From Escherichia coli O127:H6 str. E2348/69 (lineage in GTDB: Bacteria > Pseudomonadota > Gammaproteobacteria > Enterobacterales > Enterobacteriaceae), in the NCBI RefSeq assembly GCF_000026545.1, contig NC_011601.1: a DNA stretch of 64,000 nt; one strand, 5' to 3'. Below are positions 3,197 to 64,000 of the stretch, piece by piece; position 1 is the stretch's first letter; each line of letters starts with the position of its first letter. A program made the translations under genes and the position numbers. The notes beneath the pieces were generated by a model, which was not told where the DNA came from, made no database searches, and saw only the letters and a list, made by a program, of their open reading frames with translations.

Positions 3197-4636
3197 GTGG
3201 CCCAACACACCGTTTATTTCCCGGACGCCTTTCTGACACAAATGCGCGAAGCGATGCCTTCGACGCTCTCTTTTGATGATTTTCTTGCCGCCTGTCAGCG
3301 CCCGTTGCGCCGCAGCATTCGCGTTAATACGCTGAAAACCTCCGTTGCTGATTTCCTGCAATTAACTGCTCCTTATGGCTGGACGCTTACGCCAATTCCG
3401 TGGTGTGAAGAAGGTTTCTGGATTGAACGCGACAGTGAAGATGCATTGCCGTTGGGTAGTACCGCCGAGCATTTAAGCGGCCTGTTTTATATTCAGGAAG
3501 CCAGTTCAATGTTGCCTGTTGCCGCCTTGTTTGCTGACGGTAATGCACCACAGCGGGTGATGGATGTCGCTGCTGCACCAGGTTCCAAAACGACGCAAAT
3601 TGCTGCGCGGATGAATAACGAAGGGGCAATCCTTGCCAATGAGTTTTCCGCCAGTCGGGTAAAAGTGTTACATGCCAATATCAGCCGCTGTGGCATCAGT
3701 AATGTTGCGCTCACGCATTTTGATGGCCGCGTGTTTGGTGCGGCAGTGCCAGAAATGTTCGATGCCATTTTGCTGGACGCTCCCTGCTCCGGCGAAGGCG
3801 TGGTGCGTAAAGATCCCGATGCGCTAAAAAACTGGTCACCAGAAAGCAATCAGGAAATCGCAGCGACCCAACGGGAGCTGATCGACAGCGCCTTTCATGC
3901 ATTACGTCCTGGCGGTACGCTGGTTTACTCGACCTGTACCTTAAACCGGGAAGAAAACGAAGCCGTTTGCCTGTGGCTGAAAGAGACTTATCCCGACGCA
4001 GTAGAGTTTTTACCGCTTGGCGATCTCTTCCCTGGTGCAAACAAGGCGCTGACCGAGGAAGGCTTTTTGCATGTTTTCCCACAAATTTACGACTGCGAAG
4101 GCTTCTTCGTTGCTCGTCTGCGTAAAACTCAGGCGATCCCCGTCTTACCCGCCCCAAAATACAAAGTGGGCAATTTCCCGTTCAGCCCGGTGAAAGATCG
4201 CGAAGCCGGACAAATTCGTCAGGCGGCTGCAAGTGTTGGCTTAAACTGGGATGAAAACCTGCGACTCTGGCAGCGTGACAAAGAACTGTGGTTGTTCCCG
4301 GTAGGCATTGAAGCCCTGATCGGTAAAGTCCGATTTTCTCGCCTGGGGATTAAACTTGCCGAAACGCACAACAAAGGTTATCGCTGGCAGCATGAAGCCG
4401 TTATTGCCCTTGCCTCCCCCGACAATGTGAACGCTTTTGAACTGACACCGCAGGAAGCGGAAGAGTGGTATCGCGGGCGCGATGTTTACCCGCAAGCCGC
4501 GCCAGTGGCGGATGATGTATTGGTTACTTTCCAGCATCAGCCGATTGGTTTAGCCAAACGGATTGGTTCACGACTGAAAAACAGCTACCCGCGTGAACTG
4601 GTGCGCGACGGGAAACTTTTTACCGGTAACGCCTGA
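3197..4636 (+). CDS. rsmF: 16S rRNA m5C1407 methyltransferase RsmF (YebU)
   Basis: ORF 3191..4636; SAM-methyltransferase motifs ([22 protein letters not shown]); start assumed at GTG 3197 for a 479-aa product, ATG 3191 is the alternative. Confidence 0.9.
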
Positions 4637-50605: not shown

Positions 50606-51466
50606 TTAATCCTTACTTAGCGCATACACCGTCTGACCACGCAGCGTGAAGCGGCGCTCAAGGTGGCTAAAGTTTTCAGAGTGACCCGCAAACAGCAATC
50701 CGTCGGGTTTAAGGAGCGAAACAAAGCGGCGCAAAATCTCCTGCTGGGTAGTTTGATCGAAGTAGATCATGACGTTACGACAGAAGATCGCATCAAACGG
50801 CCCCGGCACGGTGTACTGTTTCGCCAGCAAATTCAGCGGGGCAAAATCAACATAGTTCGCCAGCTCCTGACGCACGCGTACCAGCCCTTCATGCGGTCCC
50901 GTCCCTCGCATGAAATACCGTTGCAGTTGCTGCGGCGTCAGGTTTTTCAACTCTTCATGGCGATAAATACCGCTTCTGGCTTTTTCCAGCACTTCGGTGT
51001 CGATATCGCTGGCAAACACTTTCCATCGTCCGGGCGCGGTGCCCAATGTATCAGCCAGCGTCATCGCTATGCTGTACGGCTCTTCGCCGGTTGAAGCCGC
51101 CGCGCTCCATACGCGATACTCGCCAGAACGGCGACGTGCGTGATCCGCGAGCAGAGGAAAATGGTGTGCCTCACGGAAAAATGCCGTCAGATTCGTGGTC
51201 AGCGAATTGATAAACGCCTGCCACTCACCGCTGTGCTGATTAGATTCCAGCAAGTTCAGGTAATGACCGAAATCCGCCAGTCCCAGCGCACGCAAACGAC
51301 GAACCAGTCGGTTGTAAACCATGTCGCGTTTATGGTCAGCCAGAACGATCCCGGCTCGTTGATAGATCAATTGACTTATCCGCCGAAAATGCGCGTCGGA
51401 AAGCGCCAGGCGCTCGGTCATCTGTAACAATAAAGACGTTTGCCCACAGGGCAGAGATGAAGTCAT
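50606..51466 (-). CDS. cheR: Chemotaxis receptor methyltransferase CheR
   Basis: 286-aa ORF. Confidence 0.97.
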
Positions 51467-51484
51467 AGCGCCTTCTCAATCACT

Positions 51485-51711
51485 TCAGGATACCACTGGC
51501 GCAATTTGTAACTGCGCCGACTCATGTCGTGCTACTTCATGTTCTTCAAGGGTAAATACCGCCACACGCGACGAAAGATGGTCGGCCTGATTCAGTCGTT
51601 GCAAATCGTCGCGAAATGCCCAAAAGACATGCCGTTACTGCCAATCTGCAAGATCCCGCAGAGAATCAAAGTTAAAAACAGCGTGGTCGAAATTCGAATA
51701 CGATTAAACAT
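51485..51711 (-). pseudogene. tap: tap remnant: MCP 5' end (about 30 codons) joined to MCP 3' end (about 33 codons); central ~1.4 kb absent
   Basis: ATG at 51711 opens MFNRIRISTTLFLTLILCGILQIGSNGMSF, paralleling the Tar N-terminus in this window, and stops after 39 codons at 51592; a second frame runs ...AFRDDLQRLNQADHLSSRVAVFTLEEHEVARHESAQLQIAPVVS to a stop at 51485, 18 bp before cheR. Confidence 0.7.
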
Positions 51712-51756
51712 CAACGCTCCCCATCAGGCGGCAATGACCGCTTTAGTAAATACTCG

Positions 51757-53418
51757 TCAAAATGTTTCCCAGTTTGGATCTTGTTCAGCAATTCGCAGTC
51801 GTGGCTGTGCCGGTGGTTGCTCACTGGCAGGACGGGATGGTGTTTGCAGTTTATTGGTGAGTGGGCTGGCTGCCAGACGGAACGCGGAAACCGCTTGCGT
51901 TAAACGACTCGCCTGTTCTTCCAGCGCAGCTGCGGCGGCAGCTGATTCCTGCACCAGCGATGCGTTCTGTTGCGTGACGCGATCCATTTCCGAAACCGCC
52001 AATGCGACTTGATCGATGCCACGGCTCTGTTCATCCGATGCTGATGCAATCTCGCCCATAATGTCAGTCACGCGAGTGACAGCATTGACGATATTGTTCA
52101 TTGTTTCCCCAGCGCTTTCGACCAGCACCGAACCGGTATCAACGCGCGAGACGGAGTCTTCAATGAGGGCTTTGATCTCTTTTGCCGCCTGTGCACTGCG
52201 ACTGGCAAGATTACGCACTTCACCCGCCACCACGGCAAAACCACGGCCCTGTTCACCCGCTCGCGCGGCTTCAACAGCGGCATTCAGCGCGAGGATATTA
52301 GTCTGGAAGGCAATACCATCAATAACGCTGATAATGTCGGCAATTTTCTTCGAACTATCGGCGATCTCATGCATCGTTTTCACTACGCCATCCACCACTT
52401 TGCCGCCGTGCTGGGCGGTGTCGGAGGCACTTTGCGCCAGTTGCGAGGCCTGGCGGGCGTTATCGGCGTTTTGCTTCACTGTCGCGGTGAGCTGCTCCAT
52501 GCTGGCGGCAGTTTCTTCCAGCGCGGATGCCTGCTGTTCAGTACGGGAGGAAAGATCGGTGTTGCCCGCCGCAATTTCACGGGTACCGGCATAGATGGCA
52601 TCTGAACCTTCGCGCACATGAGTGACGGTGTCAGTCAAAGAGCGTTGCATATGTGAAACACTCTGCGCCAGGTCGCCCATTTCACTGCGCCCGTCAATGG
52701 TCAGGGTATTCGCCAGGTTACCATCGGCAATTTCGCGAATATGCGCAATAATTTTTGCCAGCGGTGTAAGCAACATACGGCGAATGCCGTACCACGCCAC
52801 CAGCAGAATCAATACCACCACCAGCGCGATAACCGCCAGTTGCCACTGGGCAAATCGGTAATCATCTGCGTTGTCAGTGACGATATCGCGATACAGTTTT
52901 TCACTGCTGAGGGCGTACTGAGCAAACGCTTCGCCCATTGCATTTTGCATTCCCTGGGTTGGCTGAGCGAAATAAGCTCCAGTATTGCCATAATCAAGAT
53001 AATCAATCAGTTCAGTTAACGCTGTGTGATAGTTTTTATATTTTTCATCAATATTACGACTGGTAGCGACCATTTCAGGTAACGGTGCCATGCTTTTGAA
53101 TTTTTTATAATGCGTCGCGGCCTGGGCCAATGTTTTCCTGGCGCTATCGAGCAATTCAACTTTGGCATTACTTTGCTGATTGGATGAATCCATCATCATC
53201 CGCACCGCTGAACGACTCAGGTTAATGCGCGTTTGCAGCATTAAATCCCATGTTGACGTCAGCTCGCCCTGCTGTTCCCGTAATTGATTGGAAACCACAA
53301 AGCTCTTCTGGCTATGGTGAAGGGAAGAAAAAAACAGACTGCCGGAAATAAGCTGTAACAGTGCGAATACCCCCAGCACCATTACCAACAGCGTGACTAC
53401 GCGGATACGGTTAATCAT
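51757..53418 (-). CDS. tar: Methyl-accepting chemotaxis protein II (aspartate/maltose receptor Tar)
   Basis: ORF 51757..53439; start at internal ATG ([21 protein letters not shown]) gives 553 aa; ends with the NWETF pentapeptide. Confidence 0.95.
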
Positions 53419-56982: not shown

Positions 56983-57866
56983 GCTTCCTCGGTTGTCGTC
57001 TGTTGTTGCGGATTTTTCACCGCACGCACATGCTCTTCCAGCTCAATAAACGACGGACGTTCGCTGGAATAGAGCGTTTTGCGACCAAACTCAACGGCGA
57101 TAGGCGGTGCGTAACCGTTCAGATTTGAAAGCAGAGTGACTTTGACGCACTGCATCATTTTGCTGGTTTCGGCGCTTTTCTGACGTAAAACACTCGCTAA
57201 TGGGGAAATAAATCCGTAAGCCAATAAAATACCGAGGAAAGTCCCCACCATCGCATGAGCGATAAGCGCCCCCAGCTCGGCGGCAGGACGATCGGCTGAA
57301 CCTAACGCGTGAACGACCCCCATTACAGCCGCAACAATACCAAACGCCGGAAGTGAGTCCCCGACCAGCGCCAGACTGTTCGCCGGGACTTCTGCCTCGC
57401 TTTCGTGCGTCTCAATCTCTTCATCCATCAGAGCTTCGATTTCGAAGGTGTTCATGTGACCACTGATAATCAGGCGCAGATAATCGACGATAAATTCAAG
57501 CATGACGCTATCCGCAAGGATGCGTGGGTAGCTGGCGAAGATCTCGCTCTCACGGGGATTTTCAATATCGCGTTCCAGCGAAAACATCCCCATCTGCCGC
57601 GATTTCGCCATCAACCGATAAAGCAGAGCCAGCAGATCCATATACATTGCTTTGGTGTATTTGGAGCGACGAAACAGCAACGGCAGCGCCTTCAGCGTGC
57701 CTTTAATCGCTTTGCCATTATTGCCGACGATAAACGACCCAATCCCTGCACCGGCAATAATCACCAGTTCAGCGGGTTGATAGAGTGCTCCAAGGCTTCC
57801 ACCGGTCATCAAATAACCGCCGAAAACTGTACCGAGAACAACCAGGTAACCTAATAAGATAAGCAC
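56979..57866 (-). CDS. motA: Flagellar motor stator protein MotA
   Basis: 295-aa ORF overlapping the motB start by 4 bp. Confidence 0.97.
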
Positions 57867-57937
57867 GACATCATCCTTCCACTGTTGACCATGACAGGAT
57901 GTTCAGTCATCAGGCGTTAACACGCGATAGGGGCAAA

Positions 57938-58038
57938 AAAAAGCAGCGGTACGTCGTTACCGCTGCTGGAATGTTTCGCCACACCGTATCAGTTAAACAG
58001 CCTGTACTCTCTGTTCATCCAGCAGTTGTGGGATAATA
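57938..58038 (-). ncRNA. Candidate MotR-type sRNA / motA 5' leader, ending at an intrinsic terminator; ends are approximate
   Basis: Sigma-28 promoter at 58046..58072 inside the flhC 3' end, followed about 100 nt downstream by hairpin CAGCAGCGGTAACGACGTACCGCTGC plus T8 (57938..57972) before the motA ATG. Confidence 0.4.
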
Positions 58039-58571
58039 TCGGCAGGATTCTGGGAAAGTTTACGTCTTTTTACTGCCCGGGATGGCGGCTGACATAAGCT
58101 GCAGGCAAAGCTGCCAACAGGCTGGTGAGCGTGGGTAATAAAATTGCCGCCGCAGCAGTTGCAGCTGGAAAGTTGCAGTAATCCACTTTCAACAAACCGC
58201 ACCAATGTCCAGGCACGGGTTAATGCCAGCAGCGGTCCTTCTTCTGCTTGCGGGCACTGTTCAAGGTATAAACGGTAGGCTTTGATCACCGCATCGACGC
58301 CATTACACAAGCCAGTTTTCAGTAAAAACTGCCATGCATTACAGAACATCGAAGCATGAACATTTTGTTCCCAGGTCATAAACCAGTCGGTTGAAAATGG
58401 CAGCATGCCTTTCGGCGGTGGGCTTCCGCGCAGTTCTTTATAGAGTTTTATCAGACGTCCGCGACTTAACTGTGTTTCGCTTTCCAGCATCTGCAAACGA
58501 GCGCCCAGGGTGATCAATTCCATTGCCAGCTGAATATCCCGCGCTTCCTGAACAATGCTTTTTTCACTCAT
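57993..58571 (-). CDS. flhC: Flagellar master regulator subunit FlhC
   Basis: 192-aa ORF with a Cys4 zinc-binding C-terminus (CNCCGGNF...CSLCQPP). Confidence 0.97.
58046..58072 (-). promoter_or_regulatory. Sigma-28 promoter of the motAB-cheAW operon, located within the flhC coding sequence
   Basis: Minus strand reads TAAACTTT-N11-GCCGATAT, a close match to TAAAGTTT-N11-GCCGATAA. Confidence 0.7.
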
Positions 58572-58573
58572 GA

Positions 58574-58924
58574 TCAGGCCCTTTTCTTGCGCAGCGCTTC
58601 TTCAGGCTGATTAACATCATTCAGCAAGCGTGTTGAGAGCATGATGCCGGTATGAATTTGCTGGAGATCGTCAACGCGGGAATCTTGCGTCAACTGAGTA
58701 ATCGTCTGGTGGCTGTCAAAACGGAAGTGACAAACCAGTTGATTGGTTTCTGCCAGCTTAACCATTTGCGGAAGAGTCAGTGCCGCTAACGTTGTCGCCA
58801 TTTCTTCATTTATGCCGAGACGAAACATAGCGGACGCTTTGTCCTGAACAATCAGACGCTGTGCAAGTAGTAAATATGACAAGTTGATGTCATAAATGTG
58901 TTTCAGCAACTCGGAGGTATGCAT
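58574..58924 (-). CDS. flhD: Flagellar master regulator subunit FlhD
   Basis: ORF 58574..58933; start taken at [15 protein letters not shown] (116 aa); the 119-aa start at 58933 is the alternative. Confidence 0.93.
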
Positions 58925-59703
58925 TATTCCCACCCAGAATAACCAACTTTATTTTTATGCGGTCACACCGCACCCCGTGATGTCGCCGGGAAGCCCCGGT
59001 AAAAAATAATTAGCATTAGAATAGTTGCGATAAGCTGCAATAAGCAGACCCACCTTTTTGGTTTAATAAGTCCTTACAAATAGAAGGGGGTCTTTACACT
59101 TATCTAAGATTTTTCCTAAATCGACGCAACTGTACTCGTCACTACACGCACATACAACGGAGGGGGGCTGCGATTTTCAATAATGTGTGATGCAGATCAC
59201 ACAAAACGCTCAATTACTTAACATAAATGTATAAGTCATACTTTTGTTTTGGGTGTATTTCAATCTGTTAAAAAATTTTTCACTACACTGGCAAGCAAAA
59301 ATGAAACAGGAATAATCGAAATGGGATGTTGCGCACAGTTAAAATAACTCACCGTAAATAATCATCTGCTATAAATAATCGCTTTAATGCAATACCAGAT
59401 AAGCCATTTTTAAACAAACACTTACCGCACAACAAACTAATTAACTACAAAGAAAGGCAACAATCAATCTAATGTTAATAAAATATTTTACATATATTAA
59501 CCACTTGTTCAATATGGGAAATCAGTACATTATTTTCTTATAAATACAGTTGAAATCATATGATAACCAAGAGTGATTGATTAATTGTCTTTACTAATAA
59601 CCAGACTAATATTTACCTGTTTAACTGAGTTGGGATTGCGTCGTTTCTCCATTAGGAGTAAAGCTTTAATGTCACCTGAAGTTCACAGAATAAGGAACAG
59701 GTT
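58925..59703. promoter_or_regulatory. flhDC promoter and long 5' leader, and the divergent uspC promoter; AT-rich; no insertion sequence present
   Basis: About 780 bp of AT-rich non-coding DNA between the divergent flhD and uspC starts with no transposase ORF or terminal repeats; individual regulator sites were not mapped. Confidence 0.6.
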
Positions 59704-60132
59704 ATGAGCTATAGCAATATTCTTGTCGCCGTTGCGGTTACACCGGAAAGTCAGCAACTGCTGGCAAAAGCGGTATCTATCGCCAGGCCAGTAAAGGGAC
59801 ACATCAGTTTAATTACTCTCGCTTCCGACCCGGAAATGTACAATCAATTAGCTGCGCCGATGCTTGAAGATTTACGCAATGTGATGCAGGAAGAAACGCA
59901 AAGCTTTCTTGATAAGTTAATTCAGGATGCGGGGTATCCCGTTGACAAGACGTTTATTGCCTACGGTGAGTTAAGCGAACATATTCTGGAAGTTTGTCGC
60001 AAACATCATTTAGATTTGGTGATTTGCGGTAATCACAATCACAGTTTCTTTTCGCGAGCATCCTGCTCGGCGAAAAGAGTGATTACCTCAAGTGAGGTCG
60101 ATGTGCTGTTAGTTCCACTTACGGGAGATTAA
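59704..60132 (+). CDS. uspC: Universal stress protein C
   Basis: 142-aa ORF MSYSNILVAVAVTPESQQLL... Confidence 0.93.
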   Translation: MSYSNILVAVAVTPESQQLLAKAVSIARPVKGHISLITLASDPEMYNQLAAPMLEDLRNVMQEETQSFLDKLIQDAGYPVDKTFIAYGELSEHILEVCRKHHLDLVICGNHNHSFFSRASCSAKRVITSSEVDVLLVPLTGD

Positions 60133-60138
60133 CCGCAC

Positions 60139-62889
<2,751 letters not shown>

Positions 62890-62908
62890 CTGTCTCTTGA
62901 TCAGATCT
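62890..62908. repeat. Terminal inverted repeat of an IS50-family element (matches the IS50 inside-end 19-mer)
   Basis: CTGTCTCTTGATCAGATCT begins exactly where the araH frame is interrupted; the transposase stop codon (TGA on the minus strand) lies inside it. Confidence 0.8.
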
Positions 62909-64000
62909 CCTGATCAAGAGACTTCATCACCAGGTAACCCTCAACCATATCCTGAAGTCTGAACCAGCCATCCCACATGACTACCCAACCGGGGCGACCG
63001 GTGCGTTTGCTGTCATGCCATCGCCCCAGTTTCGCCAGTTTCAGACAGGCCCATTTCAGTGTCGGCATCTGTGACGGAAGCGGTTTTCCTTCCAGCTTAA
63101 CCCACAGCAGTTTCCACTCTGTCGGCGTCAGTATTTTCTCACAGCTGTCATTTTGTGTTTCTTCACTGATACCGCCCTGCCGCAGGCCCAGCACCCGCAC
63201 CGCGATAAACGCCTTGATAACCACCATGCGCTCGAGGTTATCCCGGGTCTGCATTCGCAGCGATTCCACACATGTACCACCACTTTTCCACGCCTTGTGG
63301 TATTCCTCTATCAGCCAGCGTCGCTCGTAATGGCTGACGATACGTCGCGCATCGGCGGCACTCGCCACTTTTTCTGACGTCAGCAGATGCCAGCAGGCGC
63401 CGTCCTCTGCCTGCTCCCGGCAACAGACATACGTGAGCGGGAGCGCCTGGCCGCTGTTGTCGGGATTTTTTATGCTGACTTCGCTGTAACTGATGAACAT
63501 CCGGGCCTGGCGGGCTGCCCGCCCGCCTTTTTGCATCACATTCAGCGTGTGGCTTCCCGCGGTTGCCAGGACTTCCGGCAGTTCGAAGAGCTTGCCGGGT
63601 GCTTCTTCCAGCCGGCGATTCTGTGCTGCACGCACCACGAAGCGCTGCCCGTGGCTGACTTTATAATGCAGGTAATGCCAGATATCCGCTTCCCGGTCAC
63701 AGACAGTGATTACCCGTTTCTGTATCTCCCCCAGCCGTTCGGCCATGCGCTCCGAAGCCTGCTGCCAGCGGTAACTTTCTTTTTCTTCATAGGGACGTTC
63801 TTTTCGCTGGTGCTTAACACCGTAGGTGTCCGTGGCACGACTCCAGCGCTGCTGTTCGATAAGACCGACTGGCAGGGCGCTGTCGGGGGCGTACATCAGG
63901 ACAGAGTGAGCCAGCAGCCCGCGCGTCTTCGGGTTAGTGGTGGTATTCCCCAGGTCATCAGATGCCGTACTGTGACTGAAGTTAATGGTGGTGGTGTCTT
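62901..64000 (-). CDS. IS4-family DDE transposase (Tn5/IS50 Tnp homologue), C-terminal ~365 codons; N-terminus lies beyond the window
   Basis: Frame is open from the window edge (DTTTINFSHS...TRGLLAHSVLMYAPD...) to the stop at 62901; VITVCDREADIW and RWLIEEYHKAWKSG align with the D188 and Y-R-E-K catalytic motifs of Tn5 Tnp, and DSKRTGRPGW with its C-terminal region. Confidence 0.85.
   Translation of the reverse strand, partial: DTTTINFSHSTASDDLGNTTTNPKTRGLLAHSVLMYAPDSALPVGLIEQQRWSRATDTYGVKHQRKERPYEEKESYRWQQASERMAERLGEIQKRVITVCDREADIWHYLHYKVSHGQRFVVRAAQNRRLEEAPGKLFELPEVLATAGSHTLNVMQKGGRAARQARMFISYSEVSIKNPDNSGQALPLTYVCCREQAEDGACWHLLTSEKVASAADARRIVSHYERRWLIEEYHKAWKSGGTCVESLRMQTRDNLERMVVIKAFIAVRVLGLRQGGISEETQNDSCEKILTPTEWKLLWVKLEGKPLPSQMPTLKWACLKLAKLGRWHDSKRTGRPGWVVMWDGWFRLQDMVEGYLVMKSLDQEI

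Follow-up and report, generated by a model that had tools for sequence, protein, structure and literature searches.

The genes flhD and uspC are divergently transcribed in Escherichia coli, and the spacer between them contains the control region of the flagellar master operon flhDC. K-12 stocks vary in whether an IS1 or IS5 element is inserted in this spacer, and such insertions raise flhDC expression and motility (PMC5100188, PMC5493358). The question raised by the locus is therefore what may be concluded about a strain in which the spacer is not interrupted. An earlier note on this DNA had described the spacer as about 780 bp of AT-rich sequence, free of insertion sequences (IS), and had taken this as a help in fingerprinting the lineage and as a sign that motility may be comparatively low. 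Here, the spacer is analysed within a stretch of 64,000 bases (the window). The genes on either side are:

58574..58924, minus strand: coding sequence of flhD, 116 residues, with the ATG at 58924 (open reading frame list, and RefSeq WP_001295647.1 of the identical E2348/69 record).
59704..60132, plus strand: coding sequence of uspC, 142 residues, divergent from flhD (open reading frame list and RefSeq annotation).

The spacer is bounded exactly by both genes and occupies 58925..59703, which is 779 bp. Its GC content is 34.7%, compared with 51% over all 64,000 bases, with a minimum of 25% at 59400-59599. The size and composition given earlier are therefore accurate. Divergent flhD and uspC genes on either side of a collinear spacer of about this length are the layout of the native class I promoter region.

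The spacer does not contain a copy of IS1 (768 bp) or IS5 (1,195 bp). No blastn match to the window was obtained with either complete element, IS1 being taken from MG1655 and IS5 from a K-12 isolate, and the terminal repeats of both elements have no match with three or fewer mismatches in the entire 64,000 bases. There is no transposase reading frame (insA/insB or ins5) in the spacer, where the longest open reading frame has 40 residues, and the five frames of 30–40 residues have no significant match in Pfam (best E = 0.1, below the cut-off). A repeat search of the spacer returned only trivial repeats and inverted repeats, and no target-site duplication (8–9 bp for IS1, 4 bp YTAR for IS5) flanks an insert in it. 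The earlier note had stated that there is neither a transposase frame nor an inverted repeat here, and had named IS1 or IS5 ends, or an insA, insB or ins5 frame, within 58925..59703 as the observation that would overturn its reading. All of these were looked for and are absent. It is thus confirmed that the spacer is in the uninterrupted promoter state and carries no mobile element. Two positions used as IS targets in K-12 are present in undisturbed form:

59224..59231 (-102 to -109), no strand: CATAAATG, the 8 bases that IS1H duplicated on insertion in MG1655, single and intact (from the IS1H flanks and the alignment).
59218..59221 (-96 to -99), no strand: TTAA, the IS5 hot-spot of K-12, single and intact (position as given in PMC5100188).

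The IS5 target pattern YTAR has 70 matches around the locus, against about 88 expected. Its sites are thus not enriched, and with so short a pattern the count carries no meaning.

The corresponding interval of MG1655 measures 1,555 bp (NC_000913.3 1978198-1979752) and contains the annotated element IS1H, with insA5 and insB5. When the 768 bp of IS1H are removed together with one of the two copies of the 8-bp duplication CATAAATG, 779 bp remain. The alignment with MG1655 proposed in the earlier note is then collinear and gapless, with 38 substitutions, 0 indels and 95.1% identity. The substitutions are concentrated in one part of the spacer:

59232..59650, no strand: AT-rich upstream stretch, 25-36% GC, holding 30 of the 38 substitutions relative to K-12.

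A block of 98 bp (59088-59185, -63 to +35) shows no difference at all between the window and K-12. MG1655 therefore shares with the window the flanking genes, their orientation, the spacer length after removal of IS1H, the RcsAB box and both promoter hexamers (-10 and -35). It differs in having IS1H and the 8-bp duplication, and in reading CGTGA in the CRP core where the window has TGTGA.

IS5 is represented in K-12 by an isolate from mouse gut, in which the element lies at the equivalent of 59468-59471; with IS1H in MG1655, this bears out the earlier statement that K-12 stocks carry IS1 or IS5 in this region. The target sites of IS5-activated K-12 alleles (that of PG20180172, and the TTAA allele at -96 to -99 of the MC1000/BW25113 type) are also found in the window, whereas the 1,195-bp IS5 and its 4-bp duplication are both missing. 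The far-upstream IS5 target of PG20180172, which is TTAA in K-12, is CTAA at 59468-59471 of the window (substitutions at 59468 and 59469), and still obeys the YTAR target rule. According to PMC5100188, insertions as far out as -476 still stimulate flhDC in K-12. The spacer of the window is not an IS-activated allele of the K-12 type, and has none of the four marks by which such an allele would be recognised.

The regulatory features of the spacer were located relative to the transcription start of flhD, which was placed at 59122, as in K-12 (Soutourina 1999), where the ATG lies 198 nt further downstream. This position agrees with the annotated 3' end of AsflhD in MG1655, and it puts the centre of the CRP site at -71.5, in keeping with the same start. 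The features are:

58925..59122, minus strand: 5' untranslated leader of flhD, 198 nt, as defined by the K-12 start.
58903..59122, plus strand: putative counterpart of the K-12 antisense RNA AsflhD (b4839), placed by gapless transfer from MG1655 1978176-1978395.
59105..59118 (+5 to +18), no strand: RcsAB-box-like sequence TAAGATTTTTCCTA, read from the sequence and lying inside the block identical to K-12; presumably the RcsAB box of K-12.
59129-59134 and 59152-59157, minus strand: predicted core promoter of flhD, with -10 TACAGT and -35 TTGTAT respectively, from the start position and the sequence; the same in K-12.
59183..59204, no strand: predicted CRP site, core 59186-59201, centred at -71.5, from the sequence and the alignment.

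The core promoter, the CRP site at -71.5 and the RcsAB box are all conserved in sequence, as they would be in a native promoter. It is of note that the CRP core of the window is a perfect palindrome, TGTGA-TGCAGA-TCACA, while the K-12 core departs from it at 59186. RcsAB is among the regulators listed for the region upstream of flhDC, and the AT-rich upstream region is a binding region for H-NS, other repressors and nucleoid proteins in K-12 (PMC5493358). The antisense RNA AsflhD has been described previously (PMC9600491); an Rfam scan of 57800-60300 at E ≤ 1 identified no family, AsflhD and the leader included. A scan for consensus promoters and terminators returned three promoter-like sites, where chance alone would give 3.5, and it is uninformative for this locus. 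It also missed the known flhD promoter, which is to be expected of a simple consensus scan, because the promoter is activator-dependent.

We propose that the class I promoter flhDp, the CRP site, the RcsAB box, the leader overlapped by AsflhD and the AT-rich upstream region would function together as the native flhDC control region. Cyclic AMP-CRP would activate the promoter, while H-NS, OmpR, LrhA and RcsAB would repress it, and control at the level of the leader would be added to the transcriptional control. E2348/69 would lack the derepression brought about by IS1 or IS5 in some K-12 stocks. The regulator sites of E2348/69 are predicted from those of K-12 on the basis of sequence identity and the literature, and regulator binding and the level of flhDC expression in this strain are likewise predictions. 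Given that the block from -63 to +35 is the same as in K-12, native, condition-dependent transcription of flhDC is most likely. The locus is almost certainly the ordinary, ancestral flhD-uspC region of EPEC O127:H6 E2348/69, with a native, condition-dependent flhDC promoter. The uninterrupted spacer is simply the wild-type state, already known, of a reference strain whose genome has been sequenced. The window is confirmed to carry the control region of the flagellar master operon of this pathogen in its native form, which in itself matters little.

A different possibility is that the spacer of E2348/69 represents a regulatory allele peculiar to its lineage, which alters flhDC control relative to other E. 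coli. The sequence is 100% identical in three assemblies only, all of them O127:H6 E2348/69, and some of the 38 differences from K-12 fall in places where they might matter: the one at -64 is in the CRP site, and six are in the leader (+36, +37, +54, +74, +158 and +159), that at +54 being beside a GGA motif. The spacer was therefore compared across six genomes, namely E2348/69, its relatives Z1323HEC0477 and RM14723, UPEC 536, O157:H7, and K-12 minus its IS. The length is 779 bp in every one of them, and the alignment has no gaps. Relative to the window there are 4 and 6 substitutions in the two close relatives, 12 in UPEC 536, 26 in O157:H7 and 38 in K-12. UPEC 536, O157:H7, Z1323HEC0477 and RM14723 thus stand 4 to 26 substitutions away from the window, but they resemble it in having the consensus CRP core and the same leader alleles at +36, +37 and +54. 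It is K-12 that is the outlier, both at -64 (59186, in the CRP core) and in the leader at +36 and +37 (59086-59087) and +54 (59069). Among the six genomes, the window has a private base at a single position, 59282 (-160). An altered, lineage-specific control of flhDC is therefore improbable, and the native promoter remains the preferred reading.

The same comparison draws attention to K-12 itself. The 78-bp core of the window (59130-59207) is found in identical form in 3,440 of 5,381 genomes, while 404 of 5,288 have exactly the K-12 version. It is conceivable, though we consider it rather unlikely, that the native flhDC promoter of K-12 is a weaker minority allele, and that this helps to explain why IS rescue is frequent in K-12 stocks, while wild strains such as E2348/69 are motile without an IS. 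The informative contrast would then be that the unusual flhDC control region is that of K-12. The minority allele of the CRP site in K-12 may be relevant to groups that use K-12 as a model for flhDC regulation.

A further possibility, and one that we regard as very improbable, is that the IS-free spacer diagnoses the lineage of a laboratory stock and is a sign of comparatively low motility. The variation among K-12 stocks noted above is what lends it force, but the window is not K-12: it matches NZ_CP059840.2 2082719-2146718 in reverse complement at 64,000 of 64,000 bases. The K-12 frame of the earlier note is inapplicable, because the window is throughout that of the prototype EPEC strain, E2348/69. 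In addition, E2348/69 has the majority allele of the core promoter, with the consensus CRP core.

The IS content of E2348/69 points the same way. A chimeric megablast query was constructed by joining a 1,281-bp anchor of E2348/69 to 400-bp pieces from the interior of IS1 and of IS5. The three E2348/69 chromosomes each gave one place, the anchor only, so that neither IS1 nor IS5 was detected, with the proviso that internal-fragment megablast would miss very divergent or truncated copies and that the search for IS1 and IS5 covered the chromosome and pMAR2, but not the small third plasmid. The same query matches in 13 places in the median E. coli genome. The plasmid pMAR2 (NZ_CP059841.1) has no IS5, and of IS1 it has only a remnant (140 bp, 71% identical) together with the annotated, divergent IS1-like element ISEc30. 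The absence of IS1 and IS5 upstream of flhD is thus expected, since the E2348/69 chromosome has no detected copies. The abundant element of E2348/69 is ISEc13, which occurs in about 30 places. It is worth adding, as a separate observation on pMAR2, that perA (the BFP/LEE regulator gene; NZ_CP059841.1, 95823..43) is annotated as frameshifted; this could be a variant of the stock or an assembly error.

The frequency of the uninterrupted state was counted in complete E. coli genomes. With the 779-bp spacer as query, 5,271 of 5,426 genomes gave a match of at least 80% in one place, a count in which genomes with IS1 would appear intact, since matching segments separated by as much as about 890 bp get joined. 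The count was for this reason redone with a 400-bp probe (59125-59524), which an IS1-sized insertion splits. The probe was unsplit in 5,246 of 5,426 complete genomes, or about 97%, a figure that is approximate in that the 80% threshold may miss insertions near the probe ends. In 139 of 5,418 matching genomes the probe was found in two separate places, and roughly 3% are therefore interrupted.

Individual cases illustrate the interrupted state. In the K-12 strain 1FA the probe match is split into two places where MG1655 has IS1H. The O145 cattle isolate RM9154-C1 has ISEc20 between flhD and uspC (record 1577-2773), and in the urinary isolate E05 an IS1 (record 3244-3941) stands in place of flhDC, motAB, cheAW and the 5' part of tar; this isolate is presumably non-motile. 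IS elements thus enter the flhD-uspC spacer in wild isolates too, but rarely. The IS-free state is the default of the species and has almost no value as a fingerprint, because about 97% of complete genomes share it, and these counts refute its use as the marker of a laboratory stock.

The prediction of low motility is likewise not supported by what has been published on the strain, which is reported to be motile in LB. This medium favours both flagella and motility in E2348/69, DMEM abolishes both, and HeLa cells or CO2 are stimulatory (PMC9032864). In addition, strains of phylogroup B2 are reported to have a truncated Trg, named Tls, by which FlhDC is sequestered (PMC12623472). Motility in the E2348/69 lineage is set by several layers, and the IS-free spacer alone predicts little about it.

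That an IS was once present in the spacer and was lost by precise excision or recombination, leaving a secondary rather than an ancestral state, has a negligible probability: ISEc13 is numerous in E2348/69, and wild isolates do have ISEc20 (O145) or an IS1-associated deletion from flhDC to tar (urinary) at this locus, but the length is the 779 bp of the five other genomes, with no indel, duplicated target or IS remnant, and the nearest relatives, only 4-6 substitutions away, are also uninterrupted. Past insertion with precise excision was rejected for want of a footprint, noting that a truly precise excision would be traceless.

The ancestral, uninterrupted spacer had been listed earlier as one of three lesions or states that together fingerprint the lineage. 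The two others are:

51560-51711, within 51467-51756, between tar and cheR: remnant pseudogene of tap, 152 bp, frameshifted.
62505-62888: remnant of the truncated araH, followed from 62901 to the end of the window (64000) by the transposase of an IS4-like ISEc13.

Only one of the three serves this purpose. The junction left by the tap deletion (51400-51800) is present in 1,058 of 5,426 complete genomes. Phylogroup B2 is reported to have lost Tap (PMC12623472), and the count fits this published loss; the deletion is a marker of the clade and not of the strain. The IS-free spacer does not contribute, at about 97%. The araH lesion stands: the junction of araH with ISEc13 (62700-63100) is found in three complete genomes, all O127:H6 E2348/69, and this copy of ISEc13 lies 3.2 kb from the spacer. 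The absence of an IS upstream of flhD does not discriminate between lineages, and it is only the araH::ISEc13 junction and the pattern of single-nucleotide differences in the spacer that identify the strain.
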